A stretch of 64,000 nt of DNA, from the NCBI GenBank assembly GCA_943354745.1, contig CALRDB010000001.1:203-64202 (forward strand), read 5' to 3'. This document shows positions 44,864 to 64,000 of the stretch, in pieces; position 1 is the stretch's first letter, and each line of letters begins with the position of its first letter. Below the pieces are notes generated by a model. The model saw only the letters and a program-made list of their open reading frames with translations. It was not told the origin of the DNA and did no database searches. The stretch is from Candidatus Nomurabacteria bacterium. Its GTDB lineage: Bacteria; Patescibacteriota; Minisyncoccia; Phycocordibacterales; UBA10002. The position numbers and the translations under genes were made by a program.

Positions 44864-44875
44864 GAGAATATTTCT

Positions 44876-45424: not shown

Positions 45425-45447
45425 TCTTCATCCTTTCTCGTTATCCA

Positions 45448-46209: not shown

Positions 46210-46282
46210 ATATTGTTTTCTGCTGATTCGCGCACTTAGATTTCACGATTATTCAAGAAGCGGAAGAAAGTAAATACACAAC

Positions 46283-46918: not shown

Positions 46919-46954
46919 TAAGTCGACCGGCTTTGGAGTTATAATGGATGCCAT

Positions 46955-48139: not shown

Positions 48140-48142
48140 TAT

Positions 48143-48856: not shown

Positions 48857-49824
48857 GGTTTTTTGTCGTCGGCTTAGGCTCGATGGGGAAACGGCGTGTC
48901 CGCAACCTTCAGGCAAACGGTGAAAAAGATATCACCGGTTTTGATATTCGTCCCGACCGTATCGCGGAAGCGAAAGAAAAGTACGGCATCAAAACGGTAG
49001 ACGCACTCGCGGACATGCCTCCGAGTGATTTTGATGCATTGATTATTTCCGTGTCTCCCGATGTGCACGGAGACTACATCCGGTATGCGCTGAAACACAA
49101 AAAACACTTCTTTGTGGAGCACCCGACCAGTGACGATGGCTACAAGGAAGTCATCGCGGACAGGAGCGCCATCGTAAAGGCGCCATCGTGCACGTTCCTA
49201 TTCAACCCCGCTATAAAAATAATGAAGCAGATTCTAGAGAAGGGAACGATAGGAAAAGTGCTCGCGTTTCAATATCATATGGGACAGTATCTTCCCGATT
49301 GGCATCCGTGGGAAGATTACCGCGACGTCTATTTTTCTAAAAAAGAAACAAGCGCGTGTCGTGAAATGTTTTGTTTCGAACTTATCTGGCTCAATTCGCT
49401 TATTGGCGCGCAGGTGAAGGAGGTACGTGGCACCATCACGAAACTGACTGACCTCGACATGGATGCCGATGACACCGTCACGGCGACCCTTCTCTACGAG
49501 AACAACGTGCATGGCACTCTACTCATCGATGTCATATCACGAAAACCTTTTCGCACGCTCCGCACCCTCGGTTCCGAAGGGGTGCTTGAGTGGGAGAGGT
49601 TTGACTACGCGCTTAAAGTTTTTAACGTGGGCACCAAAAAAACCGAGGTTATTCCCATTCCCAAAGGCAATCCCGAAAAAGGCTATGTGAACGAAGAGGA
49701 GATGTATGTCGATGAGATTAAGGCATTTTTGGACGCAATCAAAGAGCGGAGGATATACCCATATTCATTCGAGGAAAACCTAAGAAAACTGGTACTGCTT
49801 GAAAACCTCAAAAAGCAGTCCTAG
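48853..49824 (+). CDS. Gfo/Idh/MocA-family oxidoreductase
   Basis: It has a Rossmann-fold start (FFVVGLGSMGKRRV) and a GFOR C-terminal domain. Confidence 0.65.
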   Translation: MRFFVVGLGSMGKRRVRNLQANGEKDITGFDIRPDRIAEAKEKYGIKTVDALADMPPSDFDALIISVSPDVHGDYIRYALKHKKHFFVEHPTSDDGYKEVIADRSAIVKAPSCTFLFNPAIKIMKQILEKGTIGKVLAFQYHMGQYLPDWHPWEDYRDVYFSKKETSACREMFCFELIWLNSLIGAQVKEVRGTITKLTDLDMDADDTVTATLLYENNVHGTLLIDVISRKPFRTLRTLGSEGVLEWERFDYALKVFNVGTKKTEVIPIPKGNPEKGYVNEEEMYVDEIKAFLDAIKERRIYPYSFEENLRKLVLLENLKKQS

Positions 49825-49860
49825 AACTAAGAGTGCCTCTTTCGGGTTATCAAAGGTATC

Positions 49861-50928
49861 ATGAAAAGAAATATCCTTAGCATTGGTAATAAAATTGTCG
49901 GAACAGGACACCCTGTGTTTATTATTGCCGAGGCTGGGGTGAACCATAACGGGAAACTCTCGCTTGCAAAAAAACTTATTGATGCCGCCGTAAAGGCTGG
50001 CGCTGATGCCGTAAAGTTTCAGACCTTCGACCCCGATACGCTTGTGACCAAGGGGGCTTCGAAGGCAACCTATCAGGATAAGAACGAAGAAACAGAGGGT
50101 GCAGGAGAAACCCAATACGCGATGCTGAGGCGCCTCATGCTCAAACGCGAGTATCATCCTGAACTCAAAAAATACGCGGAGCAAAAAGGCATTATGTTCC
50201 TCTCCACGCCGTTCTCGCTCTCCGACGCGGAGTTTTTGCGGGACCTCGGCATCGTGGCACTCAAAGTCGGTTCAAGTGATACGAACAATATCCCGTACCT
50301 TCGCACTATCGCGAAGTGGAAGCTCCCGATTATTCTTTCGACCGGCATGTCGGATTTACCCCTTCTTCACGAATCGATTACAGCGATACGGAAAGCGGGG
50401 AATAATGACCTTATTGTTCTGCACTGTACCACCAATTATCCTACGCCTATCCAAGAAGTGAATTTGCGAGCAATGCAAACGCTCGAACAAGAACTCAACG
50501 TTACTGTCGGATTTTCCGACCACACGGAAGGTATCGTTGCTCCGGTTCTTTCTGTCGCTCTGGGTGCGTCGATGATCGAAAAGCACCTGACGCTCGACAA
50601 GACCATGCCGGGACCAGATCATAAAGCTTCGCTTGACCCGAAAGGGTTTAAGGAAATGGTTACTGTTGTTCGCGATGCAGAGCAGGCACTGGGTACGGGG
50701 AAAAAGAATCTCTTTGCAAGTGAAATGGAAATAGCCAAAGTTGCTCGCAAGAGTTTGGTGACTTTGCGTCCGGTCAAAAAAGGTGAGAAGTTCACCGAAA
50801 AGAATCTTACTGTCAAACGTCCGGGGACTGGACTCCCTCCAAGAGATTTTGACAAGGTCATCGGTACAAGAGCAACAAAGGATATTAAGGCAGACTGCCT
50901 TCTCATTGTTCATGATTACTCCGCTTAA
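49861..50928 (+). CDS. neuB: N-acylneuraminate-9-phosphate/nonulosonate synthase (NeuB/LegI family)
   Basis: It has an N-terminal TIM barrel (FIIAEAGVNHNG, KFQTF) and a C-terminal SAF/antifreeze-like domain. Confidence 0.8.
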   Translation: MKRNILSIGNKIVGTGHPVFIIAEAGVNHNGKLSLAKKLIDAAVKAGADAVKFQTFDPDTLVTKGASKATYQDKNEETEGAGETQYAMLRRLMLKREYHPELKKYAEQKGIMFLSTPFSLSDAEFLRDLGIVALKVGSSDTNNIPYLRTIAKWKLPIILSTGMSDLPLLHESITAIRKAGNNDLIVLHCTTNYPTPIQEVNLRAMQTLEQELNVTVGFSDHTEGIVAPVLSVALGASMIEKHLTLDKTMPGPDHKASLDPKGFKEMVTVVRDAEQALGTGKKNLFASEMEIAKVARKSLVTLRPVKKGEKFTEKNLTVKRPGTGLPPRDFDKVIGTRATKDIKADCLLIVHDYSA

Positions 50929-52066
50929 GAAAATAGCATACATTTCCGGAACCCGAGCCGACTTTGGTCTAATGACCCCGGTGCTTCAGGTCATCGAAAA
51001 AAGAGAGAAGCACTCGCTTCAGGTCTACGCAACCGGCATGCATCTTATGCCACTCTTTGGGGAAACGATACACGAAGTTAGGAAACTATTTCCGAATGTA
51101 AGGCGTATCGAAGGAGTTTTTGAAAGTGATGAACGCGCCGGTATGGCGCGATTCGCCGGCGCGTTTCTCCCTAATGTCGTGGAAGCTCTGATTACCGAAA
51201 GGCCGGATTTTGTACTGATTTTGGGTGATCGAATAGAAATGCTCGTCGTTGCCGTTGCTTGTTTGTATCTAAGTATTCCCACCGGGCATCTTCATGGCGG
51301 GGAACGGACCGCCACCGTTGATGATGTGGCGCGTCACGCTATTTCAAAACTAGTCTCTTTGCATTTGACGACCACGGAGGATTCCGCAAAACGCCTGCGG
51401 AACATGGGGGAGGAAGAGTGGCGCATTCACATTGTCGGAGCTCCCGCCTTAGATACGATACGTCTTGCGACGCTTCCCACACGGAAAGAATTATGTGAAA
51501 GATTAAAACTTGATTCATCTAAACCTTTTATTTTACTTGTGCAGCATGCAGTAAGCGACGAGACGAAAAAAGTGGGGGAGCAGATACTGGAAACACTCGC
51601 CGCGGTAAAGTCGTTTTCACTACCGGTTGTCGCGATATATCCAAATGCCGATTCCGGTGGCATGCGAATTATCGCTGAAATCGAGAAGGAGAGAGGGAAT
51701 CCGCTCTTTTCCATTTTTCCGAACATATCACATACCGATTTCCTCGCGCTTGAACGCGAGGCGGCAGTTTGGGTCGGAAATTCAAGTGGGGCACTTATCG
51801 AATCATCTTCTTTCGGAACTCCCGTCGTTAACGTGGGAACACGGCAGAAGGGAAGAGTCCGTGGAGAAAACGTCATTGATGCCGGCTACAATAAAATAGA
51901 AATACAAAACGCTATCCAGAAATCTCTACATGACGAGAACTATAGACGGTATCTCAAGACTATTTCGAATCCCTGGGGCGACGGGCATACCGGTGAAAAG
52001 GTGGCCAACATACTTGGGAATCTTGAAGAACCGGCAAAGCTTTTATCGAAACAAATAGCGTATTGA
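50912..52066 (+). CDS. neuC: UDP-N-acetylglucosamine 2-epimerase (hydrolysing), NeuC/LegG family
   Basis: It has KIAYISGTRADFGLM, HLHGGER and NSSG motifs. I place the start at MITPLKK, giving a 17-bp overlap with neuB. Confidence 0.75.
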   Translation: MITPLKKIAYISGTRADFGLMTPVLQVIEKREKHSLQVYATGMHLMPLFGETIHEVRKLFPNVRRIEGVFESDERAGMARFAGAFLPNVVEALITERPDFVLILGDRIEMLVVAVACLYLSIPTGHLHGGERTATVDDVARHAISKLVSLHLTTTEDSAKRLRNMGEEEWRIHIVGAPALDTIRLATLPTRKELCERLKLDSSKPFILLVQHAVSDETKKVGEQILETLAAVKSFSLPVVAIYPNADSGGMRIIAEIEKERGNPLFSIFPNISHTDFLALEREAAVWVGNSSGALIESSSFGTPVVNVGTRQKGRVRGENVIDAGYNKIEIQNAIQKSLHDENYRRYLKTISNPWGDGHTGEKVANILGNLEEPAKLLSKQIAY

Positions 52067-52085
52067 TACTGTTATAGTAAGCACA

Positions 52086-52901
52086 ATGAACGGTGGTGAA
52101 CAAAAGAAAATACGGCGGGCAATCTTGCTCGGAAGGAAAGAAGGAGCAGCGGACGCTCTCTCTTTTTTGCTTGAGCAAGGTGTTACTGTTCCTTTAGTTG
52201 TTGCACAGAAAGATGAGCTAGTGGGACGTTCTCTCGCTAAAGAAGCCCAACGGAGACACATTCCGGTTTTCGGAAATACTCACGACGTCTACGCGCTCTT
52301 AGAAAAAAACGATCCGCTGGTGCAAGACATTGATCTCGTCATCTCTTTTCTATTTTGGCAGAAGATACGGGAGCCCGTCATTAAACTCGGGAAACAGGGG
52401 TGTATTAATTTCCACCCCGCCCCGCTACCTGACTATAAAGGAAGAGCAGGGTATAATACGGCGGTTCTTGATTGTCGGAAAACATTCGGAGTGAGTGCTC
52501 ACTTCATTGATGCCGAAGAATTTGATACTGGTCCGATTATCGAGGTCTTGACATTCCCGCTCGACACTAACTTAGCAACGGCGCTTTCGCTGGAACGGGA
52601 ATCGCAAAAACATCTTCTCTCACTTTTCAAGAAGGTACTAAATCGCTTCATAATGGGTTTGACAATACTGACCACACCTAACATCGGTGGATTGTATCTC
52701 AACAGCGTTGAGCTTGAAGCACTGAAACAAATTGATCCAGAGAATGATTCTGCGGAAGAAGTCGAAAGAAAAATACGGGCGTTCTTCTTCCCTCCGCATC
52801 ACGGAGCGAAGATTACAATTCAAGGGAAGTCCTTCACTCTAATTGATGAGAAAATATTGAAATGGTTAGCGGACATACTTGCGAAGCGTACTGATGTATA
52901 A
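52086..52901 (+). CDS. Sugar N-formyltransferase-like (formyl_trans_N family)
   Basis: It has INFHPAPLPDYKGRAG, which matches the formyltransferase HxSLLPxxRG motif, followed by FIDAEEFDTGPII with the catalytic Asp region. Confidence 0.6.
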   Translation: MNGGEQKKIRRAILLGRKEGAADALSFLLEQGVTVPLVVAQKDELVGRSLAKEAQRRHIPVFGNTHDVYALLEKNDPLVQDIDLVISFLFWQKIREPVIKLGKQGCINFHPAPLPDYKGRAGYNTAVLDCRKTFGVSAHFIDAEEFDTGPIIEVLTFPLDTNLATALSLERESQKHLLSLFKKVLNRFIMGLTILTTPNIGGLYLNSVELEALKQIDPENDSAEEVERKIRAFFFPPHHGAKITIQGKSFTLIDEKILKWLADILAKRTDV

Positions 52902-52915
52902 AATCACTTTTTTCA

Positions 52916-54043
52916 ATGAAACAGTACCCTCTCGCAAAACCTCATATCGGTAAAAAAGAAGAACGTGCGGTACTCGAAGTACTGCGTTCGGGTGTCTTAA
53001 GTATGGGTCCAAAAGTAGAAGCTTTTGAAAAACGTTTTGCTCGTTTTGTCGGCACTAAGTATGCCGTTGCTGTTTCAAGCGGAACTGCCGGCCTTCATCT
53101 AGCCCTTATTGGCGCAAATATCGGTCATGGCGACGAAGTGATTACCACTCCCTTTTCCTTTATTGCTTCTGCAAACGCTATTTTATATGTTGGTGCAAGA
53201 CCGGTATTTGTCGACGTCGATCCCGTGACCTATAACATGGATCCGAAAAATATTGAAGCAGCCATTACTTCAAAGACAAAAGCGATACTCGTTGTGCATA
53301 TTCTTGGGCAGGCAGCTTCAATGAACGCGATATGTGCCATTGCCCGAAAACATAACTTAAAAATCGTCGAGGATGCCTGCGAAAGCATAGGCGCCACCTA
53401 TAAGGTTGGAAAAAAGCTAGAGCAGACAGTTGGGACTTTTGGAGAGTCAGCGGTCTTCGCCTTTTATCCCAATAAGCAGATGACAACAGGGGAAGGTGGT
53501 ATGATAGTGACGAACGACCAGAAGCTCGACGCTCTCTTTCGAAGTTTGCGAAATCAGGGGCGTTCGGCCGATATGAACTGGCTGGAACACCAGCGACTTG
53601 GTTACAATTATCGTCTTGATGAAATGAGTGCCGCACTCGGACTTGTACAGCTCCAAAATATAGAGACGTGTATTCGTGAACGGCAGAAAATTGCAACGTG
53701 GTATCAAGAGTTTTTGTCTCCATACTCAGCGTGTGTCACACCCCCGGCAACCGCCGCTGAAAATACGCATACCTGGTTCGTGTACACAGTTCTCCTTCCG
53801 AAAGATGTTTCGCGCGAAAAAGTGATGAAGCGGCTTGAAGCGGAAGGCATTGCCACTAAACCGTATCTCCCTTCTATACATCTTTTCAGTTTTTATCGAG
53901 AGCAATTCGGCTTTTCCCCAGGTAACTTCCCGGTCTCCGAATTAGTTAGTAATAGGGCATTGGCGTTACCGCTCTATATCGGCCTCAAGAAGACTGAGAT
54001 AGCTTTTATTGTGAAAAAATTAATCACCTGTATTTCTAAGTAA
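52916..54043 (+). CDS. DegT/DnrJ/EryC1/StrS-family aminotransferase (sugar 4-aminotransferase, LegC/PglE-like)
   Basis: It has AVAVSSGTAGLHLAL and PLP-lysine region motifs. Confidence 0.8.
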   Translation: MKQYPLAKPHIGKKEERAVLEVLRSGVLSMGPKVEAFEKRFARFVGTKYAVAVSSGTAGLHLALIGANIGHGDEVITTPFSFIASANAILYVGARPVFVDVDPVTYNMDPKNIEAAITSKTKAILVVHILGQAASMNAICAIARKHNLKIVEDACESIGATYKVGKKLEQTVGTFGESAVFAFYPNKQMTTGEGGMIVTNDQKLDALFRSLRNQGRSADMNWLEHQRLGYNYRLDEMSAALGLVQLQNIETCIRERQKIATWYQEFLSPYSACVTPPATAAENTHTWFVYTVLLPKDVSREKVMKRLEAEGIATKPYLPSIHLFSFYREQFGFSPGNFPVSELVSNRALALPLYIGLKKTEIAFIVKKLITCISK

Positions 54044-54055
54044 TCTTTTATCTCA

Positions 54056-55102
54056 ATGGGTGCCGCATTTAAAGGTAAAAATATATTGGTAACCGGTGGT
54101 ACCGGATCAATCGGTTCGGAAATCGTCCGACAGATCTTGCCGCATAAGCCAAAAACTATCAGGGTCTTTGCTCGTCACGAAGATCGCCATTTTCAACTTA
54201 TGCAAGAGTGGGCCGGACATGAGGGTGTTATCCGCTTTATCGTGGGTGATATCAGAGACAAAGAACGGTTGGCGCTGGCCATGGAGGGTATAGATATTGT
54301 GTTCCATGCGGCTGCGCTCAAACATGTTCCGCTGTGCGAATATAATCCGTTTGAAGCCGTCAAAACAAATATTATCGGAACACAAAACGTGATTGAAACG
54401 GCTCGGAGTGCGCAGGTAAAGCAAGTCATTGGCATTTCGACCGATAAGGTAGCAGAACCGGAAAGTGTCCTCGGTGTCTCCAAGCTCATGGCAGAGAAAT
54501 TATTTTTAGCCACCTACTTTTACAAGGGCAATACGCATACAAAGTTCACCTGTGTTCGGTTTGGTAACGTGTTAGGAAGCCGCGGTAGTATTCTTTCGCT
54601 CATTAAGTCGCATGTGGTCAATGGTACGCCTGTTCCGGTAACTGATCCGGCCATGACTCGTTTCTTTATGACGATCCCCGAGGCGGTGAAATTGGTTCTT
54701 GACGCCTCGCTTCTCGGTAAGGGACAAGAAGTGTTTGTGCTTAAAATGTCTGCTGCGCGTCTCGGCGATGTGGTTAAGGCCGCTCTTTCTTACTACGCCC
54801 CTCTTGTCGGTAAAAAACCTGATGATATCCCCACCACGATTATCGGAAGACGAAAAGGAGAGAAAATGCATGAAAAGATGCTAGCGGATTATGAAATCTC
54901 AACAGCGCTCGAAACTGAGACAATGTACATCCTCACTCCTCAAGGAAATGCGTTTTCCGAATATACTACGACGTACGCGGCCTCCCCAGTGCATATTTCA
55001 AAGAAAAGTTTTTCCTCAGAATTTGCCACCAAGCTTTCTGTACAGGAATTGCGGTCTCGAATTGAAAAGGCAGACATGGATCAGGCGAAAGAATCCCATT
55101 AA
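54056..55102 (+). CDS. UDP-GlcNAc 4,6-dehydratase, Polysacc_synt_2 family (PseB/PglF/CapD-like)
   Basis: It has ILVTGGTGSIGSE, FVGDIRD, HAAALKHVP and STDKV motifs. Confidence 0.75.
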   Translation: MGAAFKGKNILVTGGTGSIGSEIVRQILPHKPKTIRVFARHEDRHFQLMQEWAGHEGVIRFIVGDIRDKERLALAMEGIDIVFHAAALKHVPLCEYNPFEAVKTNIIGTQNVIETARSAQVKQVIGISTDKVAEPESVLGVSKLMAEKLFLATYFYKGNTHTKFTCVRFGNVLGSRGSILSLIKSHVVNGTPVPVTDPAMTRFFMTIPEAVKLVLDASLLGKGQEVFVLKMSAARLGDVVKAALSYYAPLVGKKPDDIPTTIIGRRKGEKMHEKMLADYEISTALETETMYILTPQGNAFSEYTTTYAASPVHISKKSFSSEFATKLSVQELRSRIEKADMDQAKESH

Positions 55103-55109
55103 ATCTCCT

Positions 55110-56891
55110 ATGAACATTATCCGTACACTCGCTAATACGCTCTCGCTCTTTCGTCGCGCCTTTGGGGGGTACACATGGAATATTACCCTTATGGCTGTTC
55201 TCAGTTTTGTAAGTGGCCTTCTGGAGGGGCTTGGCGTTACTGCAGTGATTCCGCTTCTTTCGTTTATCGGCGGCGGCGAAAAAGCAACTGACGCCATCTC
55301 GATCGCCATTGCGGGACTATTCCGGTATTTTAATATTTCTTACACCGCAAAATTTCTTTTGTTATTTATTATTCTTCTCTTTCTAATCAAAGCGGTATTT
55401 TCTTTTTTGTCGCAACAAATCACCGCGCACATTATGGCGGATTTTGAGAAAAAGATGCGAATCAAACTTCTCGCTTCGACGTTCGCCACACGCTGGTCGT
55501 TTCTTTCTTCTCAAAAAGTCGGCCATCTGGACCAGATGCTTACGACTGAGGTTGCTGCAAGTTCATCGATTCTCTATTACCTCAGTAGTTCGATATTGGT
55601 CATCGCAAACCTCGTGGTGTACAGCGCTTTGGTCTTCAATATATCATCCAGCGTTGCTCTCCTTGCTATTTTTTCTGGGATGGTAATTTTCCTCGTTTTT
55701 CTTCCTTTGCTCCGACGCGCCAAGATTATTTCGATCGATATGGTACGGGAGAATAAGAGACTTGCTCATTTTGCGAACGAACATATTATCGGTGCGAAGA
55801 CGATTAAGGCTATGCATCTTGAACGGGCTGCACTTGAAAAGGGTGTGATGCTACTTACGATAATGCAGAAATTATATTTGAAGACCTCTCTTCTAAAAAA
55901 TATGACAACCGCTCTCATTCAGCTTTCAGGTGTCTTTTTCATCATTGGCCTGTTTGCTTTTTTGTATAAGACTTCCGCCTTTCAGTTCGCTTCTTTTGCT
56001 GTCGTGGTCTACGCTCTGAATAAGGTAATTACCAACGTTCAATACGCTCAAAATCAAGCCCATGTCATAAGTTCGCAGACACCATACTTGCAAAGTATCT
56101 TACGATATCAAGATGATGCTTCGGATAATCTTGAGTCCGACAAGGGAACCATGCCTTTTTGTTTTGAGAAAGAAATCGTCTTTTCCAAAGTACAGTTTTC
56201 ATATCGCCCGGGGGAATCAGCTCTTTCCTCTGTGGATTTTTCAATTAAAAAGGGAGAGGCAATCGGTCTCGTTGGCCCCTCCGGATCCGGTAAGACAACC
56301 ATTGTGGATTTGTTACTTCGACTTATTAGTCCAGACAGTGGAGGTATTCTGATTGATGGTAAGAATGTGACCGATATAAGTTTGGATGAGTGGCGAAGTC
56401 ACATCGGTTACATGTCTCAGGATGTATTTTTACTTAATGACACAATCGAGAATAACATTAAATTTTACAGTTCATCAGTCACCAATCACGACATGATACA
56501 CGCCGCCAAGATGGCAAACATCTATGACTTTGTGATGACGCAGCCAGATGGATTTAAGACTGAAGTAGGAGAGCGTGGTCTCGCGCTTTCGGGCGGGCAA
56601 CGTCAGCGCATCGCGCTGGCGCGTGTTCTTGCAAGGAAGCCTGAGCTTCTCATTCTTGATGAGGCAACAAGCGCACTCGACAGCGAATCGGAAGCACTTA
56701 TTCAAGAATCCATCTCCGGTCTAAAGGGAGAACTGACGGTTGTGGCAATCGCACACCGACTCTCAACAATCATGAACTCAGATCGTTTGTTTATTTTGGA
56801 AAAGGGTCGAATACTCGAAGAGGGAACTCCTTCCGAATTGTCGGTTAATGTGGAATCCAGGTTTGCCAAACTGTACAATCGTGAGGTTTAA
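55110..56891 (+). CDS. ABC transporter, fused permease/ATPase (type I exporter, MsbA/PglK-like flippase candidate)
   Basis: It has six transmembrane helices followed by Walker A (GPSGSGKTT), the signature LSGGQRQR and Walker B (ILDEATSALD). I place the start at MNIIRTL; the ORF listed from 54891 is an extension. Confidence 0.8.
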   Translation: MNIIRTLANTLSLFRRAFGGYTWNITLMAVLSFVSGLLEGLGVTAVIPLLSFIGGGEKATDAISIAIAGLFRYFNISYTAKFLLLFIILLFLIKAVFSFLSQQITAHIMADFEKKMRIKLLASTFATRWSFLSSQKVGHLDQMLTTEVAASSSILYYLSSSILVIANLVVYSALVFNISSSVALLAIFSGMVIFLVFLPLLRRAKIISIDMVRENKRLAHFANEHIIGAKTIKAMHLERAALEKGVMLLTIMQKLYLKTSLLKNMTTALIQLSGVFFIIGLFAFLYKTSAFQFASFAVVVYALNKVITNVQYAQNQAHVISSQTPYLQSILRYQDDASDNLESDKGTMPFCFEKEIVFSKVQFSYRPGESALSSVDFSIKKGEAIGLVGPSGSGKTTIVDLLLRLISPDSGGILIDGKNVTDISLDEWRSHIGYMSQDVFLLNDTIENNIKFYSSSVTNHDMIHAAKMANIYDFVMTQPDGFKTEVGERGLALSGGQRQRIALARVLARKPELLILDEATSALDSESEALIQESISGLKGELTVVAIAHRLSTIMNSDRLFILEKGRILEEGTPSELSVNVESRFAKLYNREV

Positions 56892-56950
56892 TGTCTCAGG
56901 CTTTTTTACAACAGCCACCTCTCAATAAGAATATATGAAGTAATATACAT

Positions 56951-58399
56951 ATGAGATTATTTTTTATTGGATGGTCAGGAAAGGAGTTAGGTCTTATCGA
57001 TGTTATGGTAAGGCTGAAGAAGACTCATGACATCGTCTATTGGAGCGGCGATCGAAAAGAGTTCGAGTCCTACAAACATGAACTTCCCGGAGTTATTTTT
57101 CATGAACACTTCGATGCGCTTTATGGAATTCCGGCAGAGGGGGTAGATACTACCGTCTTTCTTCCTCCTGGTGATGCGCTCCTACGGACACTTTTGGAAA
57201 CAGAATCAACTGTTCTCACTATGATGAATAAGCGATTTGAGGGGGTGCTCGTCAGCGAACGCAAGCATCTCTATTATCGTCATGTTCGTTACTGGAACGG
57301 GGTTCTCGAAACTCTTCGGCCAGACGCCATTATATTTCCCTGTGCTCCGCATACGGTATACGACTTTGTTCTTTATAGTCTAGCCAAGATAAGAGGCATT
57401 CCCTGTATCTTTTTTGAGTTGACGGTTATTGGTGGGCGATCACTCTCGATGAAGGATTTTGTCACTGGTAATGACGCACTGGCAGAAGCGACAAAAGCCA
57501 ATGCCCACACATCAGTTCGGAAAGAAGATCTTCACGTCGATATTCGGGAGTATTATGAGTGGCAGATAAATAAACGCGCAAGTCACACTCCCGCGTATCT
57601 TACAAAACAAATCGCCGACAATTCGGGGGTGCAGAAGATGATAATCAAATTAAAATCGGTTTGGTTAAATGTGTGGGTACATCGAAACTTCGGCGCGTTT
57701 GTTAAAGTCCTGACACATATTCCGCGCAAATTCATACCAAACATGAGAAAGGAGTATTCCTCCGCGACATCTCTTCCGGATTATTCGAGGCCTTTTCTGT
57801 ACGTCCCTCTTAATTATCAGCCTGAACGAACGTCAAGTCCCCAGGGAGGGTTCTTTGTGGATCAGCTCCTCATGGTTGAAATCTTGTCGGCGTGCCTCCC
57901 ATCCGATTGGCTGATCTACGTAAAAGAACATCCCGCGCAGTGGATGCACCGCGGGCCGGATTTCTTCAGTTATCGGTATAAAGGGTTTTACCAGAGTCTG
58001 GCTACATTGAAGAATGTCAGATTGGTGCCCATGGATACGAGTACCTATACACTGATGAGTAAGGCGGTAGTCGTGGCAACCGTGACCGGCACTGCGGGTT
58101 TCGAGGCTGTTATGCGTTCGAAACCGGTTATCATATTTGGATATCCTTGGTACCAACATGCTCCGGGTGTCCTCAGAGTTTCCGACGTCCCGACTGGCAA
58201 AGAGGCGCTAAAGAAAATAGCGCACGGCTTTGCTCCTTCGCAAGATGACGTGCTACAGTACCTATTCAACTTCCAGGATACGAGCTTTATCGGGTATTGC
58301 GAACCTCACGGGCACGAGGTGGCAAACATAGGCGCGGCTAAAAACACGGAACGTATTGTTAAAGCGATTGAAACAGAATTGAGTGCAGTGAGGTTATAG
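56951..58399 (+). CDS. Paralogue of 42535-44037: GT-B-like HP-motif protein (candidate nonulosonate transferase)
   Basis: It has WLIYVKEHPAQWMHRG...VVVATVTGTAGFEAVMRSKPVIIFG, which aligns with the block in 42535-44037. Confidence 0.45.
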   Translation: MRLFFIGWSGKELGLIDVMVRLKKTHDIVYWSGDRKEFESYKHELPGVIFHEHFDALYGIPAEGVDTTVFLPPGDALLRTLLETESTVLTMMNKRFEGVLVSERKHLYYRHVRYWNGVLETLRPDAIIFPCAPHTVYDFVLYSLAKIRGIPCIFFELTVIGGRSLSMKDFVTGNDALAEATKANAHTSVRKEDLHVDIREYYEWQINKRASHTPAYLTKQIADNSGVQKMIIKLKSVWLNVWVHRNFGAFVKVLTHIPRKFIPNMRKEYSSATSLPDYSRPFLYVPLNYQPERTSSPQGGFFVDQLLMVEILSACLPSDWLIYVKEHPAQWMHRGPDFFSYRYKGFYQSLATLKNVRLVPMDTSTYTLMSKAVVVATVTGTAGFEAVMRSKPVIIFGYPWYQHAPGVLRVSDVPTGKEALKKIAHGFAPSQDDVLQYLFNFQDTSFIGYCEPHGHEVANIGAAKNTERIVKAIETELSAVRL

Positions 58400-58408
58400 T
58401 AATTACAT

Positions 58409-59413
58409 ATGGCTACAGATATATTAAAAGGGAAAACAGTTCTAGTGACCGGAGGAACGGGATCTTTTGGTAAGAGTTTTGTGCGTGAATTATTCGCTCG
58501 GCATGCCGTCAAAAAAGTTATTGTATTCAGCCGGGACGAATTCAAGCAGCATCATATGGAAAAGGAGATGCAAAGCGAGAAGCGTCTACGATTCTTCTTG
58601 GGTGACATCAGAGATATGTCTCGTTTAAGGCGAGCGTTCGCTGGAGTGGATGTCGTGATACACGCTGCCGCGCTTAAGCAAGTTCCGGCACTTGAGTACA
58701 ATCCGTTTGAAGCCATTAAAACAAATGTGATCGGTACGCAAAATGTTATTGAGGCAGCTCTCGATCAAAAGATAAAAAAAGTGGTGCTTATTTCAACCGA
58801 CAAAGCGGCCTATCCTGGAAACTTATATGGCGCAACCAAACTTTGTGCTGAACGGCTCTTCGTTGCGGCTAACTCATACGCGGCAAGACAGACTATTTTT
58901 TCTGTTGTCCGTTACGGGAATGTGCTCGGAAGCAGAGGAAGCTTCGTTGAGACCTTGCTAAAAAATAAAAAGGAAGGAAAGAAAGTTACCATCACCGATC
59001 CTAACATGACACGATTTTGGATTGGTTTAGAACAAGCATACGAACTTGTTGTGTTCGCGCTTCGCCATATGGAAGGAGGAGAGATTTTCATTCCGAAAAT
59101 CCCTAGTATGAATATAGGTGATGTAGTAGAAGCTATTTTCCCTCAAGCAAAAAGAGAAATTGTCGGTCTTCGAGCGGGAGAAAAATTGCATGAGGTCTTA
59201 TTGACCGACCAAGAATCCAGGCATGCTGTGGACTTTAAGCATTATTACGTCGTTCTTCCGGAATTTCATTTCTGGTCGGGTTCTGAGCTCTATCACAACT
59301 ATTTTCAAGTCGGAAAGAAGCTTCCTCTCGGGTTTTCGTATGAAAGCGATACCAACAAAGAGCGTTTAACTATTCAGTCGTTGCGCGATCTTCTCAATGA
59401 TGAACTTATATGA
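58409..59413 (+). CDS. pseB: UDP-N-acetylglucosamine 4,6-dehydratase (inverting), PseB/FlaA1
   Basis: It is near-collinear with Helicobacter PseB over KTVLVTGGTGSFGK, HAAALKQVP, STDKAA.P.NLYGATKL, RYGNV.GSRGS, TDPNMTRFWI, GGEIF.PKIPSM and GEKLHE. Confidence 0.85.
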   Translation: MATDILKGKTVLVTGGTGSFGKSFVRELFARHAVKKVIVFSRDEFKQHHMEKEMQSEKRLRFFLGDIRDMSRLRRAFAGVDVVIHAAALKQVPALEYNPFEAIKTNVIGTQNVIEAALDQKIKKVVLISTDKAAYPGNLYGATKLCAERLFVAANSYAARQTIFSVVRYGNVLGSRGSFVETLLKNKKEGKKVTITDPNMTRFWIGLEQAYELVVFALRHMEGGEIFIPKIPSMNIGDVVEAIFPQAKREIVGLRAGEKLHEVLLTDQESRHAVDFKHYYVVLPEFHFWSGSELYHNYFQVGKKLPLGFSYESDTNKERLTIQSLRDLLNDELI

Positions 59414-60546
59414 TTCCGTACAGTCGTCAATCTGTTGATAAACAAGATGCGGTTGCGGTACAAAAAGTACTACGTTCTGATTGGCTGACACAGGGTCCTG
59501 TAGTGAAGAAATTTGAGGAAGCCTTAGTTGCACAGACAGGTGCTCGGTTCGTGGTAGCATTTTCCTCAGGAACAGCAGCACTCGAGGCTGCCTATTTTGC
59601 GGCGGGAATCAAGAAAGGTGATGAAGTTATTATGTCTCCTCTTACGTTTGCAGCAACAGCGAACGCTGCATTGTGGGCGGGAGCAAAAGTTGTGTTTGCA
59701 GATATCGAAAGCGAGACAGGGAATCTGGATCCGGATGAAGTGATAAGGAAAATTACTACAAGAACAAAGGCAATAGTGCCGGTTGATTACGCGGGACTTC
59801 CCGCAAGACTTCGCGAACTAAAGACTATCGCGAAAAACCATGGAGCCATTCTGATTGAAGATGCGGCGCATTCCCTCGGTGCAAGTTATAGCGGCAAAAG
59901 CATCGGAAGTCTCGCGGATATGACAACATTCAGTTTTCATCCCGTTAAGTCCATCACCACGGGAGAAGGTGGAGCCGTTTCAACAAATAATAAAGCTTTT
60001 TTTGAACGATTGGTACTTTTTCGCGAACACGGAATAACGAAGCATTCCGAAAATTTCGTACTGAAAAATCAAGGAGACTGGTATCACGAGATGCAGGAAC
60101 TTGGGCATAATTATCGACTCACAGATATTCAAGCTGCACTTGGCCTCTCTCAACTCAAGAAGTTGTCGGCTTTTATATCCCGCCGTCGCGAGTTGGCTGC
60201 TCGTTACCAAAAAGCATTTGCGGGTAATACGAGTGTTATTGTCCCGCTTGAGTATTCAGGGGCACTGTCCAGCTGGCATCTCTACCCACTGCGGCTTACT
60301 AGGGATAGGAAAGAACAAAAGACGACTCTTTTTAAAAAATTACGCTCTTTAGGGATTGGAGTTCAGGTACACTACATACCGGTGTACTTGCATCCGTATT
60401 ACCAAAAAATAGGGTATAAGAAAGGCCTGTGTCCGAACGCAGAAGCTTTTTATGAAGCCGAACTTTCTATTCCACTCTATCCTGATTTGTCCCGAAAGGA
60501 CCAGGATTTCGTCATCAAAACAATAAACGAATTGACGGGGTTATAG
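59410..60546 (+). CDS. pseC: UDP-4-amino-4,6-dideoxy-N-acetyl-beta-L-altrosamine transaminase (PseC-like DegT aminotransferase)
   Basis: It has IPYSRQSVDKQDAVAV.KVLRSDWLTQGP and the DegT fold, with a 4-bp overlap with pseB. Confidence 0.75.
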   Translation: MIPYSRQSVDKQDAVAVQKVLRSDWLTQGPVVKKFEEALVAQTGARFVVAFSSGTAALEAAYFAAGIKKGDEVIMSPLTFAATANAALWAGAKVVFADIESETGNLDPDEVIRKITTRTKAIVPVDYAGLPARLRELKTIAKNHGAILIEDAAHSLGASYSGKSIGSLADMTTFSFHPVKSITTGEGGAVSTNNKAFFERLVLFREHGITKHSENFVLKNQGDWYHEMQELGHNYRLTDIQAALGLSQLKKLSAFISRRRELAARYQKAFAGNTSVIVPLEYSGALSSWHLYPLRLTRDRKEQKTTLFKKLRSLGIGVQVHYIPVYLHPYYQKIGYKKGLCPNAEAFYEAELSIPLYPDLSRKDQDFVIKTINELTGL

Positions 60547-60552
60547 GAGGAT

Positions 60553-60801
60553 ATGATCCCGTTAGAGATCAAAAATGTCACTTGGTATGTTTACGTGCTG
60601 CGAAGCGAGAAAAGCGGTTATTGGTATACTGGAAGTACAAAGGATTTACGGAAACGTTTTAGACAGCACAACGAGAATAAATCAACGTATACCAACCAGC
60701 GCGGACCATGGGAGCTTATCTATTATGAATGGTGTAAAGACGAGGAAGATGCTCGGTCGAGAGAATTATACTTAAAATCCGGGATGGGGCGTTACCTGTA
60801 A
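60553..60801 (+). CDS. Small GIY-YIG nuclease-superfamily protein
   Basis: It is 82 aa with WYVYVLRSEKSGYWYTGSTKDLRKRFRQHN (GIY...YIG with conserved Arg) and a conserved Glu later. Confidence 0.65.
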   Translation: MIPLEIKNVTWYVYVLRSEKSGYWYTGSTKDLRKRFRQHNENKSTYTNQRGPWELIYYEWCKDEEDARSRELYLKSGMGRYL

Positions 60802-60833
60802 AATCGTCTAAAACGTTTCCTATCTCTAACGGG

Positions 60834-61796
60834 ATGAAGAAAGCAAAGATCCTAATTGTAGGGGCAGGTTCCATTGGTACCCGGCATATCCGGAACCTTC
60901 TTTCTTTAGGCTATCGTAATCTAGTAGTGTGTGACTCCTCAAAAGAAAAAGTAAAGGAAATTTCTAAACTCGGAATACTTCGAATGTACGAAGATGTTCA
61001 TAAAGCATTAGCTACTGAAAAGCCGGACATAGTCTTCGTTTGTAACCCCACCCATCTCCACATACCTACTGCCGCTCTTTCTCTCGATGCGGGCGCACAT
61101 ATTTTTATTGAAAAACCAATCTCGCACACCCTTCAAGGGGTTGATGCCCTTCATACTGTTGTTACTACAAATAAAAAAGTTGCGATGGTTGCGTGTAATT
61201 TTCGATTTTCGAAAGGATTCCGAAAGTTGGAAAACATTTTACGGAAGCATGTATACGGCACTCCGCTTCTGTGCAGGGTTGCCTTAGGGTATTATCTTCC
61301 AACTGCGCGTAAGGGAGTCTCGCACACGACAACCTATGCAGCAGGCAAAATAGGCGGAGGAGTAGTGCTTGATTCTGGTTCCCATGTCGTTGAGTATCTT
61401 GCCGACTTGTTCGGAAGCGTAAAAGTGAGCAATGTCGTAAAGGGTACGACTCGCACCATTGGCATAGAAGGTGAAGAAACGGCGGGGATGCTTCTCAAAC
61501 ACGCTAATGGTGTTTTAAGTTCGATATCACTTGATTACGTCTCACGTAAATCAATTCACCGACTTGAAATCCTTACCGAAAAAGGGACACTTGTATTAGA
61601 TTTTCGAGGCGATACACTGGTCTATGAAGCAGAAAATAAAACAAGGTTGCTTTATAAGGGAGATGGTGATCTGAATCTGATGTTTTTGGAGGAGGTAAAG
61701 CATTTCATGAAATGTATAACCGATGGGTCTAAACCAAAACAAGACATCTTGGAGGCGAAGAAAACATTGAAAGTGTTGTTAGGCGATATTGACTAA
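60834..61796 (+). CDS. Gfo/Idh/MocA-family oxidoreductase
   Basis: It has KILIVGAGSIGTRH and a GFOR domain. Confidence 0.65.
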   Translation: MKKAKILIVGAGSIGTRHIRNLLSLGYRNLVVCDSSKEKVKEISKLGILRMYEDVHKALATEKPDIVFVCNPTHLHIPTAALSLDAGAHIFIEKPISHTLQGVDALHTVVTTNKKVAMVACNFRFSKGFRKLENILRKHVYGTPLLCRVALGYYLPTARKGVSHTTTYAAGKIGGGVVLDSGSHVVEYLADLFGSVKVSNVVKGTTRTIGIEGEETAGMLLKHANGVLSSISLDYVSRKSIHRLEILTEKGTLVLDFRGDTLVYEAENKTRLLYKGDGDLNLMFLEEVKHFMKCITDGSKPKQDILEAKKTLKVLLGDID

Positions 61797-63126
61797 AATG
61801 AAAAAAAAGACGACAACAAGAAAGGGATCTGTGCTGTGGAATAAAGCCAAAGTGCTTATTCCTGGAGGAAGTCAGCTTCTCTCCAAACGCTCGGAGATGC
61901 TTCTTCCGGGAAGCTGGCCTTCGTATTATGAGAAAGCAAAAGGTATCGAGGTGTGGGACCTTGATGGTAAGAAGTACATCGATTTCTCGACAATGGGAGT
62001 AGGGGTGTGTACGCTTGGCTATGCCGACAGGGAAGTAAATCATGCGGTTAAGTCGGCTATCGATCGGGGTTCTAGTGCCACCTTGAACTGTCCTGAAGAG
62101 GTTGAACTTGCAGAGCTTCTCTGTGAACTTCATCCATGGGCTCACATGGCGAGATTTGCGCGAACCGGTGGTGAGGCGATGGCTATAGCGGTACGCATCG
62201 CGCGAGCCCACACGGGAAAGGAGAAAGTGGCATTTTGTGGGTATCATGGTTGGCATGATTGGTATCTAGCCGCGAATTTGGGAGATACGAAACAGCTAGA
62301 CGGCCATTTGCTTCCCGGTCTTGATCCGGCGGGAGTGCCGCGCTCTCTTAAGGGGACAGCACTTCCTTTTTCGTATAATCATATCGAGGAACTTGAACGT
62401 ATTGTTTCCGCGAACAAGGATATAGGAGTCATTGTTGTAGAACCGCTGAGACATCAAGAACCGAAAGATAATTTCTTACAAAAAGTTGCGGCTATCGCAC
62501 AGAAGAGTGGAGCGGTGTTGATATTTGACGAGATCTCCATAGGTTGGAGGCTTACGGTAGGTGGAGCTCATCTTATGTACGGCGTACACCCTGATATTGC
62601 TGTGTTTGCGAAGGCTATGGGGAATGGTTTTCCTAGCGCTGCAGTCATAGGAACAAAGCATGTTATGGACTCAGCACAAAAGACCTTTATTTCAAGTACG
62701 TATTGGACCGACCGAATTGGTTCGGTCGCGGCTCTTGCTACTATTAAAAAAATGAAGAGGGAACATGTTCCGTTACATCTAAAAAAAATTGGTGGTCTGA
62801 TAAAAGAAGGGTGGGAAATGCTCGCGAGAAAGCATTCCCTTGATATCACGGTACTTGGCCCCGAAGCTCTTGTTACGTTTGTTCTTAATTATGGGGAGAA
62901 AAGCCAAGCACTTCGAACGCTTTTCACGCAAGAAATGCTTGCCCGAGGATATCTTGCTGGAGCAAGCGTCTATGTTTCCTATGCTCATAAAGAGCGTCAA
63001 GTGAAATCGTATCTTAAAGTGGTTGACGAAGTATTTGGAATAGTAAAAAAAGCACAGGAAAGCAAATCTGTCATCCCGTTTCTTAAAGGAGAGGTTGCGC
63101 ACTCTGGCTTTAAGCGCTTAACGTAA
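61789..63126 (+). CDS. Class III PLP aminotransferase (glutamate-1-semialdehyde 2,1-aminomutase-like)
   Basis: It has LIPGGSQLLSKR and an AT-III fold. An alternative start ATG lies at 61798. Confidence 0.65.
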   Translation: MTKMKKKTTTRKGSVLWNKAKVLIPGGSQLLSKRSEMLLPGSWPSYYEKAKGIEVWDLDGKKYIDFSTMGVGVCTLGYADREVNHAVKSAIDRGSSATLNCPEEVELAELLCELHPWAHMARFARTGGEAMAIAVRIARAHTGKEKVAFCGYHGWHDWYLAANLGDTKQLDGHLLPGLDPAGVPRSLKGTALPFSYNHIEELERIVSANKDIGVIVVEPLRHQEPKDNFLQKVAAIAQKSGAVLIFDEISIGWRLTVGGAHLMYGVHPDIAVFAKAMGNGFPSAAVIGTKHVMDSAQKTFISSTYWTDRIGSVAALATIKKMKREHVPLHLKKIGGLIKEGWEMLARKHSLDITVLGPEALVTFVLNYGEKSQALRTLFTQEMLARGYLAGASVYVSYAHKERQVKSYLKVVDEVFGIVKKAQESKSVIPFLKGEVAHSGFKRLT

Positions 63127-63141
63127 TATCTTGATCACTCT

Positions 63142-64000
63142 ATGATCGTTGCAATTATTCAATCTAGAATGGGCTCGACACGCCTTCCCGGTAAGATGCT
63201 TAGAAAAATCGGAGATAAAACGCTACTCGAGCATGTAGTGCTCCGTGCGACGCATGCCAAGACAATTTCCTCTGTGGTGATTGCTACCACTGATCAGCCA
63301 GAGGATGATGTGCTTGCGAGTATCGCCAAGAAGCTCGGTGTAGTGTGCTTTCGAGGTTCAGAGCATGATGTCCTCGACAGATATTATAAAGCAGCCAAAC
63401 AGTACAGAGCGGATACCGTTGTCCGTCTTACTGGTGATTGTCCGTTCATTGATCCGGAAATCATAGACCGAGTGGTTAATGCATACCTAAAGAGTAAAAA
63501 GAAAGTGGACTATGTGAGTAATGTTCATCCTCCCACATTTCCCGATGGAATGGATGTGGAAGTATTTTCTTTTTCCGCGTTGGAGCGCGCGTGGAAAGAA
63601 GCAAAGCTCCCCTCTGAGCGCGAACACGTTACCCCGTTTTTCTACGGCCACGGACTCTTTCGTGTGAAAAATGTACGTGACCCCAACGATAACTCTGGTA
63701 TTCGTCTTACGGTTGATACGCATGAAGATTTTCGGTTGGTAAGAAAGATATATGCTGAACTTTTTACGAGCAATAGGTCTTTCGACCTCAAAGATATTCT
63801 AGCGCTGCTTAAACAACGACCGGAATTGGCACTCATTAACGGTCATCTCTTGAGGAATGAGGGATACGTGAAATCGATTCGAAAAGACAGTACAGAGGTT
63901 TACCTCGTATTGGGGGGTACTGCAAGGAAGGGGGGAGACCGTTGGTGTACGACATTGTTTGAGCATAAAGGAGATCTCGGTGATCGGCTGCGGGTCACTG
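63142..64000 (+). CDS. Cytidylyltransferase, CTP_transf_3 family (FlmC/SpsF/PseF-like CMP-sugar synthetase), 3'-partial
   Basis: It has IVAIIQSRMGSTRLPGKML and TGDCPFIDPEIID motifs, and the frame is open to the window edge. It was absent from the supplied ORF track, presumably because no stop codon falls inside the window. Confidence 0.7.
   Translation, partial: MIVAIIQSRMGSTRLPGKMLRKIGDKTLLEHVVLRATHAKTISSVVIATTDQPEDDVLASIAKKLGVVCFRGSEHDVLDRYYKAAKQYRADTVVRLTGDCPFIDPEIIDRVVNAYLKSKKKVDYVSNVHPPTFPDGMDVEVFSFSALERAWKEAKLPSEREHVTPFFYGHGLFRVKNVRDPNDNSGIRLTVDTHEDFRLVRKIYAELFTSNRSFDLKDILALLKQRPELALINGHLLRNEGYVKSIRKDSTEVYLVLGGTARKGGDRWCTTLFEHKGDLGDRLRVT

Follow-up and report, generated by a model that had tools for sequence, protein, structure and literature searches.

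The stretch of DNA analyzed here, called the window below, comprises 64,000 nucleotides (nt) of Candidatus Nomurabacteria bacterium (contig CALRDB010000001.1) and ends, from position 58409 onwards, in a run of six genes (Table 1). They encode PseB and PseC; a small GIY-YIG protein; an oxidoreductase of the Gfo/Idh/MocA family; a class III aminotransferase resembling glutamate-1-semialdehyde (GSA) aminomutases, designated AT3; and a cytidylyltransferase of the SpsF/FlmC type, designated CT. The open reading frame (ORF) list and profile searches place all six on the forward strand, where a first-pass annotation had located them. That annotation also described the CT gene as cut by the window edge, and indeed only 286 of its 446 codons lie inside, the remainder being found beyond the edge. 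PseB and PseC both exceed the NCBIfam equivalog cut-offs, which makes them members of the pathway for CMP-activated pseudaminic acid (Pse). The start of pseC overlaps the stop of pseB by 4 nt and, since the gaps from pseB to the CT gene range only from -4 to 32 nt, the six genes are consistent with one operon.

We propose that a single operon for a CMP-activated sugar of the Pse type, arranged in a widespread architecture that differs from the textbook one, has its 5' two-thirds in this region. Taken as a whole, tailoring of the sugar included, this explanation has slightly less than an even chance of being right. One part of it, namely that the pathway is of the Pse type and relies on the SpsF-type CT for CMP activation, is by itself very likely. 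The locus is a standard member of the widespread architecture, and uses the Gfo variant of a redox slot that other members fill differently.

Extension of the locus and the Pse module

An exact-sequence look-up of AT3 retrieved a metagenomic contig of 84,356 bp (ENA contig ERZ27280297 k141_1260869, designated L001). It is 100% identical to window positions 51798-64000 across 12,203 nt, and therefore legitimately extends the window. The same look-up bears on the start of AT3: the version beginning at ATG 61798, which is the public gene call (442 amino acids (aa)), was matched, while the version beginning at TTG 61789, proposed by the mechanical ORF list, found no match and was rejected.

On L001, the complete CT carries a C-terminal DUF218 domain and is directly followed by a protein in which a GNAT domain is fused to PseI (GNAT~PseI; fusions are written with a tilde). 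The presence of a NeuB-like synthase downstream had been set beforehand as a test of the first-pass annotation, and the PseI half of this protein passes its equivalog model. As a nonulosonate synthase sits downstream, the AT3/Gfo pair belongs to a nonulosonate pathway and not to heme synthesis. With PseB, PseC and PseI all recognized at the equivalog level, the presence of a second nonulosonate module, of the Pse type, is established. The further suggestion that other genes stand in place of pseH, pseG and pseI has to be revised in part: the fusion right downstream supplies PseI and, in its GNAT, a putative PseH-like function, and pseG alone was not found. Truly missing from the module are pseG and a PseF-type gene.

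The GNAT half was compared by tblastn with the GNAT halves of PseG~GNAT fusions, to which it is 29-39% identical; because the identity reaches 39%, we consider it PseH-like, the NCBIfam PseH model giving no match to the fusion at E <= 1e-8. Further along L001 lie a 729-aa Wzy_C/TPR protein, MurB, a second small GIY-YIG ORF and SecA. A tblastn search with 26 PseG-family proteins over the window and L001 (about 73 kb) revealed no PseG domain, the sole match being the GNAT half just described, and PF04101 is absent from the gene lists. Similarly, the CT at 63142 has no match to TIGR03584 (PseF), the only PseF-like protein being encoded in another module upstream (module 1, see below).

Distribution of the cassette

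A scan of GTDB, with one genome per species, confirmed AT3 relatives in at least 598 species genomes, which span dozens of phyla as well as archaea. The best 120 database matches to AT3 are all at least 65% identical to it, Patescibacteria and Halobacteriota being among them, and the closest loci among the matches listed are from Patescibacteria (Giovannonibacteria, Saccharibacteria). To these data we added a synteny set of 80 fetched loci plus L001, in which ORFs were called and clustered and the cluster representatives annotated with Pfam. Unless specified otherwise, the counts given below concern the 77 loci with a callable AT3 gene, and genes situated within 7 kb of it.

An SpsF-type CT is present in 58 of the 77 loci, and in 18 of these it forms the N-terminal part of a CT~AT3 fusion. 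Aldo/keto reductases (AKRs) occur in 38 loci and Gfo/Idh/MocA enzymes in 21, with two loci having both, so that 57 have either one or the other; the FabG-like short-chain dehydrogenase/reductase (SDR) family is found in 17. A nonulosonate synthase accompanies AT3 in 48 loci (PseI-like in 30 of them) and a PseG-like gene, often as PseG~GNAT, in 25. PseF/NeuA-type cytidylyltransferases are restricted to seven loci, two of which also have the SpsF type. Across these loci, which come from many phyla, the usual order is PseB-PseC-[GNAT]-[AKR or Gfo]-CT-AT3-PseG(~GNAT)-PseI. For example, plasmid pSMR1-1 of the PGAP-annotated isolate Pseudosulfitobacter pseudonitzschiae carries pseB-pseC-AKR-GNAT-hyp-CT~AT3 (677 aa)-pseG-pseI, without pseF, and a plasmid of Halorussus aquaticus carries Gfo-CT-AT3 beside DegT and NeuB genes. 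The redox partner is thus interchangeable (AKR, Gfo or SDR), whereas identity among AT3 proteins remains above 50% from one domain of life to another.

The cassette of an oxidoreductase, an SpsF-type CT and a class III aminotransferase is one of the commonest accessories of Pse clusters in bacteria and archaea. The first-pass annotation had regarded the oxidoreductase and the aminotransferase as an unusual local pair, which is not the case given the number of species concerned and the frequent link to CT. The cassette has, moreover, already been drawn, with no function given, in published cluster maps of Aeromonas (PMC7874193), Legionella (PMC3694923) and Vibrio (PMC7371886), and our literature searches for a characterized function of the cassette returned descriptive mentions only.

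Independently of the above, five loci of the set have fusions of 714-750 aa, directly upstream of AT3, in which an N-terminal RmlD-like extended SDR is joined to PseC (Table 1).

The cytidylyltransferase

The assignment of CT to the SpsF/FlmC type, already made in the first-pass annotation, stands: the protein has the PF02348 fold with the SpsF-specific C-terminal region and no PseF match, its close relatives are named SpsF in the sources, and the family is linked to nonulosonate synthases in clusters that lack PseF/NeuA. The AlphaFold model of CT has a mean pLDDT of 85.6. In a rough neighbor joining tree of CT domains, the window CT falls within the AT3-associated clade. Its relatives are found fused to AT3, AKR, DUF218, DUF218~GNAT, GNAT, or GNAT plus NeuB.

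The absence of PseF and these fusions lead us to infer that CT is the CMP-nonulosonate synthetase of the module. Among the 58 loci carrying an SpsF-type CT, 56 have no PseF/NeuA-type gene within 7 kb. As only two of the 58 have one, CMP activation of the Pse-type sugar itself is likelier than activation of a different CMP-sugar, an option that the first-pass annotation had left open. Genetic studies point in the same direction. Caulobacter FlmC shows "no homology to PseF"; it completes a set of six enzymes that is enough for Escherichia coli to glycosylate flagellin in a Pse-dependent manner (PMC7591256). Bacillus subtilis SpsF is required for the transfer of legionaminic acid and not for its synthesis (PMC7439481). 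In Shewanella oneidensis, SO_3269 is a cytidylyltransferase described as "much larger than canonical" and not yet analyzed (bioRxiv 10.1101/2023.12.03.569772); we infer that it is a CT~AT3 fusion.

Four loci contain, beside the AT3 cassette, a second triad, in which an SpsF-like CT and a Gfo/Idh/MocA enzyme accompany a long aminotransferase of the DegT type (424-445 aa); the CTs of these triads branch away from the AT3-associated ones. Additional fusion partners of SpsF-type CTs were also observed, namely a radical SAM/SPASM domain, DUF2064 (PF09837) and, in Thermotogaceae, an N-terminal GNAT (Table 1).

DUF218 and the missing PseG step

The DUF218 domain of CT is not peculiar to L001: it is fused to CT in at least ten further protein clusters (36-67% identity), two of which (P0123 and P0125) have the order CT~DUF218~GNAT, and it forms a separate gene of 188-210 aa beside CT or the synthase in L006, L008, L035, L048 and L079. 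In the triple fusions, DUF218 lies between CT and GNAT, which is the spot held by PseG in PseG~GNAT fusions. All nine loci with DUF218 (the six named so far, L085, L086 and L087) are nonulosonate loci and lack a PseG-like gene, compared to its presence in 25 of the 77 loci overall. The release of UDP, normally the PseG step, would then fall to another enzyme, for which the DUF218 domain fused to CT is a candidate. We view the replacement of PseG by DUF218 as possible, if on the whole unlikely.

Proposed pathway and the role of the oxidoreductase and AT3

On family-level evidence, PseB and PseC would turn UDP-GlcNAc into UDP-4-amino-4,6-dideoxy-L-AltNAc, which the GNAT half of GNAT~PseI would N-acylate in the role of PseH. 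Once UDP has been released, the PseI half would condense the freed hexose with phosphoenolpyruvate, and the SpsF/FlmC-type CT would form the CMP-sugar in place of the absent PseF. The Capsule_synth or Wzy_C/TPR neighbors would transfer the product, and the ABC transporter would export it.

The oxidoreductase and AT3 would act as a tailoring pair on the nonulosonate, either as the free acid or at the CMP-sugar stage. The oxidoreductase would oxidize a secondary hydroxyl to a keto group, C8 and C4 being the only candidates in a 9-deoxy sugar, and AT3 would convert this keto group to an amine, giving a tri-amino sugar of the Pse type. Of the chemistries considered, oxidation followed by transamination, as suggested in the first-pass annotation, is the most plausible; that the pair installs an extra amino group is nonetheless a tentative proposal, with somewhat less than even prospects.

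Several observations favor it. The oxidoreductase has PF01408 and PF22725 together with the motifs GAGSIG, FIEKP and D-x3-H in its translation, and is thus a member of the Gfo/Idh/MocA family; its best PDB match, 3ezy, is uncharacterized, and neither the models nor PDB pointed to a particular substrate. In AT3, the Schiff-base lysine K272 and the D244 that binds pyridoxal phosphate (PLP) do not vary across the family alignment and correspond to the catalytic residues of GSA aminomutases. At about 30% identity to the GSA aminomutases in PDB, not only the catalytic Lys and Asp are aligned but also the carboxylate-binding Arg, which would fit a substrate bearing a carboxylate, for example a nonulosonate. 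An oxidoreductase is a near-obligate partner of AT3, as AKR or Gfo enzymes are complemented by SDRs in a further set of loci, and the fusion of CT to AT3 or AKR in many species ties the pair to the ulosonate/CMP step. We also count as support the parallel triad of CT, Gfo and DegT-type aminotransferase (L028, L029, L061 and L082). Oxidation followed by transamination has known analogues in WbpB/WbpE, GnnA/GnnB, and KdnB/KdnA, the last acting upstream of KdsB in the synthesis of Kdo8N (8-amino-Kdo).

Further information comes from Aeromonas hydrophila AH-1, a strain of flagellin glycosylation island (FGI) subgroup IA, in which AKR and the class III aminotransferase are the sole extra genes. Its flagellin bears a single Pse-like glycan of 403 Da (PMC4691044). 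The odd nominal mass indicates an odd number of nitrogens. An added nitrogen could account for it, and so, just as well, could an amino-acyl substituent (274 + 129 = 403).

Other observations weigh against the explanation, in one or another of its parts. As far as the amine is concerned, the commonest redox partners are AKRs, enzymes whose normal activity is carbonyl reduction and not alcohol oxidation. No tri-amino nonulosonic acid was found in the searchable literature. A third N-acyltransferase was sought across the cassette loci and showed no consistent pattern, most loci holding one only, so that the new amine would remain free or need an unlinked enzyme. In Vibrio sp. B9-25K2, an SpsF-like CT is fused to an aldo-keto reductase, "possibly replacing NeuA" (PMC7371886), and the sugar has the mass of di-N-acetyl-Pse (PseAc2) with different chromatography and fragmentation (PMC7371886). 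This suggests an isomer rather than an extra nitrogen; the cluster, however, may lack AT3. In addition, AT3 relatives with 51-61% identity also turn up where nonulosonate genes are absent. Their neighbors are, in some of these loci, lyases of the DHDPS family (NanA-like), a ROK kinase, an M81 peptidase and an ABC transporter of the peptide type and, in others, Amidohydro_2, AKR and glutamate dehydrogenase; the family may accept substrates beyond nonulosonates. As for the cytidylyltransferase, some loci have a second, more divergent SpsF-like CT, so that not every member of the family need be a CMP-nonulosonate synthetase, and both modules could in principle draw on the PseF/NeuA-like enzyme encoded in module 1. 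Finally, the anticorrelation between DUF218 and PseG comes from few, partly related loci, and PseG could lie elsewhere in the genome.

PDB sequence searches with the Gfo enzyme, an AKR from a cassette locus and an associated methyltransferase gave only uncharacterized or generic matches. N,N-dimethylation of a new amine had been considered as an argument, and found no support because the methyltransferase is not detectably TylM1- or DesVI-like.

Alternative explanations

The oxidoreductase and AT3 could instead serve to make or modify an N-acyl side chain (an amino-acyl group such as glutamyl, for instance) that ends up on N5 or N7, leaving the nine-carbon backbone unaltered. AT3 is closest to GSA aminomutases and retains the Arg that binds the carboxylate of the substrate; some of its relatives are located among amino-acid-related genes, including those for glutamate dehydrogenase and a peptide transporter; and an N-methyl-glutamyl legionaminic acid exists in Clostridium botulinum. 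By our arithmetic, the 403 Da of the AH-1 glycan equal mono-N-acetyl-Pse (274) plus the mass of a glutamyl residue (129), and the Aeromonas islands of subgroup IA are devoid of pseH. On the other hand, the cassette includes neither a ligase nor an acyl-carrier function, the fusion of AT3 and AKR to CT speaks for their acting on the ulosonate or on its CMP ester, and the PseH-like GNAT of the window locus would occupy N7. We regard a side-chain role as unlikely.

According to another explanation, which we consider quite unlikely, the pair alters the stereochemistry of the sugar or swaps a functional group with no net gain of nitrogen, the product being an isomer of Pse or legionaminic acid. This could proceed by oxidation and reduction, by transamination-mediated epimerization, or by deamination followed by carbonyl reduction. 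The predominance of AKRs (38 of 77 loci), which are typically carbonyl reductases, the lack of a consistent third N-acyltransferase, and the compound of PseAc2 mass with different retention and fragmentation in the Vibrio strain with the CT~AKR fusion would all fit, and class III enzymes do include epimerizing members: a 6'-epimerase/aminotransferase of the GenB type is among the PDB matches. Yet a highly conserved aminotransferase would be superfluous in an epimerase route, the backbone amines are all acylated at the stage where CT acts, and the odd mass of the AH-1 glycan is left unexplained.

It is also conceivable, but very unlikely, that the trio of oxidoreductase, AT3 and CT yields a CMP- or CDP-activated compound other than the nonulosonate, with which the same glycan is decorated, while the PseF/NeuA-like enzyme of module 1 (TIGR03584 166 bits, below cut-off) activates the Pse-type sugar. 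Pairs of a reductase and a cytidylyltransferase make CDP-ribitol in other systems, and two SpsF-like CTs coexist in some loci. Nevertheless, the loci with an SpsF-type CT almost all do without a neighboring PseF/NeuA-type gene, the PGAP-annotated isolate has pseB, pseC, pseG and pseI with the CT~AT3 fusion as its only CT, and some organisms have CT in fusions with PseH-like and PseI domains. The genetics of FlmC and SpsF likewise favor CMP-nonulosonate synthesis, and to our knowledge all characterized PF02348 members activate ulosonic acids.

Lastly, the notion that AT3 is HemL and the oxidoreductase a housekeeping enzyme, adjacent to pse genes by coincidence, has next to no chance of being correct and was rejected: although the best NCBIfam and PDB matches of AT3 are GSA 2,1-aminomutases, it scores far below the cut-off of every GSA aminomutase/HemL model (TIGR00713, 204.5 versus 527.3; NF004856, 272.6 versus 486), the neighborhood has no heme genes, the linkage to an SpsF-type CT is kept across phyla with 18 gene fusions, and 48 of the 77 loci provide a context of nonulosonate biosynthesis, in keeping with the first-pass annotation, for which a role in heme biosynthesis would have been a refutation.

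Neighboring genes and other features

The GIY-YIG ORF is missing between pseC and the oxidoreductase gene in the closest syntenic loci (L006 and L086), and a second stand-alone GIY-YIG ORF, 35% identical to the first, is located after murB, 9 kb downstream. Because of this absence and of the diverged copy, we consider that the ORF is probably not an enzyme of the pathway but an insertion, either selfish or unrelated to it.

Upstream of the Pse module lies module 1, a nonulosonate module of the legionaminic type. It encodes a methyltransferase, a hexapeptide acyltransferase, HisF/HisH-like proteins and a WbuX amidotransferase (acetamidino formation); the PseF/NeuA-like CT, a second Gfo/Idh/MocA enzyme (sharing 23% identity with that at 60834), NeuB and a hydrolysing epimerase of the NeuC type; and a formyltransferase, a DegT aminotransferase and a PseB/LegB-like dehydratase. 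Two nonulosonate pathways are thus present in one locus, as the first-pass annotation had claimed. It had also called such a combination uncommon, which is fair, without its being exceptional: at least three of the 77 loci have two synthases within +/-10 kb.

Between the two modules lies the gene of the ABC protein, a candidate exporter. Its mechanical ORF (666 aa, 54891-56891) runs about 210 nt into the end of the upstream dehydratase gene, and the public gene call (593 aa), with its start at 55110, is likely the true one. The order ABC exporter, Capsule_synth and PseB recurs in the Patescibacteria loci L006 and L022, and a Capsule_synth gene adjoins the cassette in L085 and L087. Judging from their family, the two Capsule_synth proteins of the window are candidate CMP-ulosonate transferases.

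Table 1. Positions of the genes, modules and fusions discussed in the text (window positions unless a locus is named; P numbers are protein clusters)
Feature	Location	Strand	Profile match or detail
PseB, UDP-GlcNAc 4,6-dehydratase (inverting), 334 aa	58409-59413	+	TIGR03589 444.9 bits (cut-off 407.75); PF02719 E 1.2e-98
PseC, UDP-4-amino-4,6-dideoxy-N-acetyl-beta-L-altrosamine transaminase, 378 aa	59410-60546	+	TIGR03588 495.5 bits (cut-off 423.5); PF01041 E 2e-120
GIY-YIG domain ORF, 82 aa	60553-60801	+	PF01541 E 3.6e-20
Gfo/Idh/MocA NAD(P)-dependent oxidoreductase, 320 aa, redox partner of the cassette	60834-61796	+	PF01408 and PF22725
AT3, class III (GSA-aminomutase-like) PLP aminotransferase, 442 aa	61798-63126	+	PF00202 142 bits, E 2.9e-41
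CT, SpsF/FlmC-type cytidylyltransferase	63142-64000 (window end)	+	CTP_transf_3 PF02348 E 4e-38
Full CT, 446 aa	L001 11345-12685		C-terminal DUF218 domain
GNAT~PseI fusion, 521 aa	L001 12682-14247		PseI half TIGR03586 410.3 bits (cut-off 340.25); GNAT PF13302/PF00583 N-terminal
Second GIY-YIG ORF, 96 aa	L001 17727-18017		
Capsule_synth (KpsC/KpsS-like), 482 aa, directly upstream of pseB	56951-58399	+	PF05159 E 1e-10
MsbA/PglK-like ABC exporter (candidate), 593 aa	55110-56891 (L001 3313-5094)	+	PF00664 and PF00005; HepA/MsbA/PglK-type NCBIfam matches below cut-off
Module 1, legionaminic-type	~44168-55102		NeuB passes TIGR03569
PseF/NeuA-like CT of module 1	48143-48856		TIGR03584 166 bits (cut-off 205.7)
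Second Capsule_synth (KpsC/KpsS-like)	42535-44037	-	
DUF218 sites	L001 11345-12685; L006 13285-13917; L008 1222-1788; L035 9524-10120; L048 12391-12987; L079 7941-8534; L085-L087		
CT + Gfo + DegT triad	L028 13645-16184; L029 11337-14313; L061 10071-13974; L082 13567-16662		
AT3 loci without nonulosonate genes	L051, L068, L073 (~7.4-13.7 kb); L010 8923-12558; L014 7839-12433		
RmlD-like SDR~PseC fusions	L019 6929-9181; L027 7430-9583; L031 2189-4387; L075 1062-3206; L076 6889-9135		
SpsF-type CTs with radical SAM/SPASM, DUF2064 or GNAT partners	P0132, P0137 (567 aa); P0127, P0129 (~503 aa); L046/L083 8688-10004		

Significance

The window adds no new kind of system, as the cassette is common and already described. 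What the window and its relatives supply is a clean minimal example of the cassette, the opposition between an interchangeable redox partner and a highly conserved aminotransferase, and a candidate, DUF218, for the PseG step. Sugars of the pseudaminic and legionaminic types decorate flagella, capsules, lipopolysaccharides and S-layers, and are virulence factors and targets for vaccines or diagnostics. The cassette is carried by Aeromonas, Legionella, probably Shewanella, many uncultured phyla and archaea; as it is found in at least about 600 species-level genomes and has no assigned reaction, sugar predictions based on gene clusters are systematically incomplete. In the broadest form of our proposal, the trio of SpsF-type CT, class III aminotransferase and interchangeable Gfo/AKR/SDR enzyme would be an undescribed, widespread branch leading to tri-amino (8- or 4-amino) sugars of the pseudaminic or legionaminic type, and DUF218 would be a new UDP-sugar hydrolase replacing PseG in some lineages. 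This combination is doubtful; if true, it would give DUF218 (the YdcF/SanA/ElyC family) its first biochemical function.

Comparison with known systems

With the canonical PseB-PseC-PseH-PseG-PseI-PseF pathway of Campylobacter and Helicobacter, the window shares PseB, PseC and PseI at the equivalog level and a GNAT in the PseH position, and the expected end product is likewise a CMP-activated nonulosonate of the 5,7-diamino type. It differs in lacking both a PseG-like gene (over 73 kb) and, within the module, a PseF-type gene, in the fusions of the SpsF-type CT to DUF218 and of the putative PseH to PseI, and in the insertion of the Gfo and AT3 genes.

The closest described arrangements are those of the Aeromonas group I flagellin glycosylation islands, pseB-pseC-aldo/keto reductase-'pseF'-class III aminotransferase-pseG-pseI (PMC7874193), and of the O-antigen cluster of Legionella pneumophila Sg6/Sg12, with CapD, DegT, an aryl-alcohol-dehydrogenase-like oxidoreductase, a cytidylyltransferase, a "GSA aminomutase", PseG and GNAT (PMC3694923). 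Both have the same cassette in the same place, between pseC and pseG/pseI. Compared to them, the window has a Gfo/Idh/MocA enzyme instead of an aldo/keto reductase, DUF218 and no PseG, and an inserted GIY-YIG ORF, and its host is Patescibacteria-like, without a flagellar context.

FlmC of Caulobacter crescentus and SpsF of B. subtilis belong to the same PF02348 subfamily as the window CT, a likeness based on family and on the SpsF names of its close relatives. As proposed for it, they fill the CMP-nonulosonate synthetase step in clusters without PseF or LegF but, according to published accounts, their organisms operate without a class III aminotransferase or an oxidoreductase partner.

The WbpB/WbpE and GnnA/GnnB pairs, acting on UDP-sugars, and the KdnB/KdnA pair, acting before KdsB, follow the same logic of NAD(P) oxidation then PLP transamination tied to nucleotide activation, and WbpB and GnnA are Gfo/Idh/MocA enzymes like the oxidoreductase of the window. 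Their aminotransferases, in contrast, are DegT-type or of other families, whereas that of the window is class III, and the redox partner of the cassette is interchangeable, unlike theirs. Finally, HemL has the same fold and PLP-binding residues as AT3, with about 30% identity and a conserved carboxylate-binding Arg at the aligned position, but AT3 differs from it by falling below each HemL model cut-off, by its context of glycan biosynthesis, and by its fusion to a cytidylyltransferase in many species.

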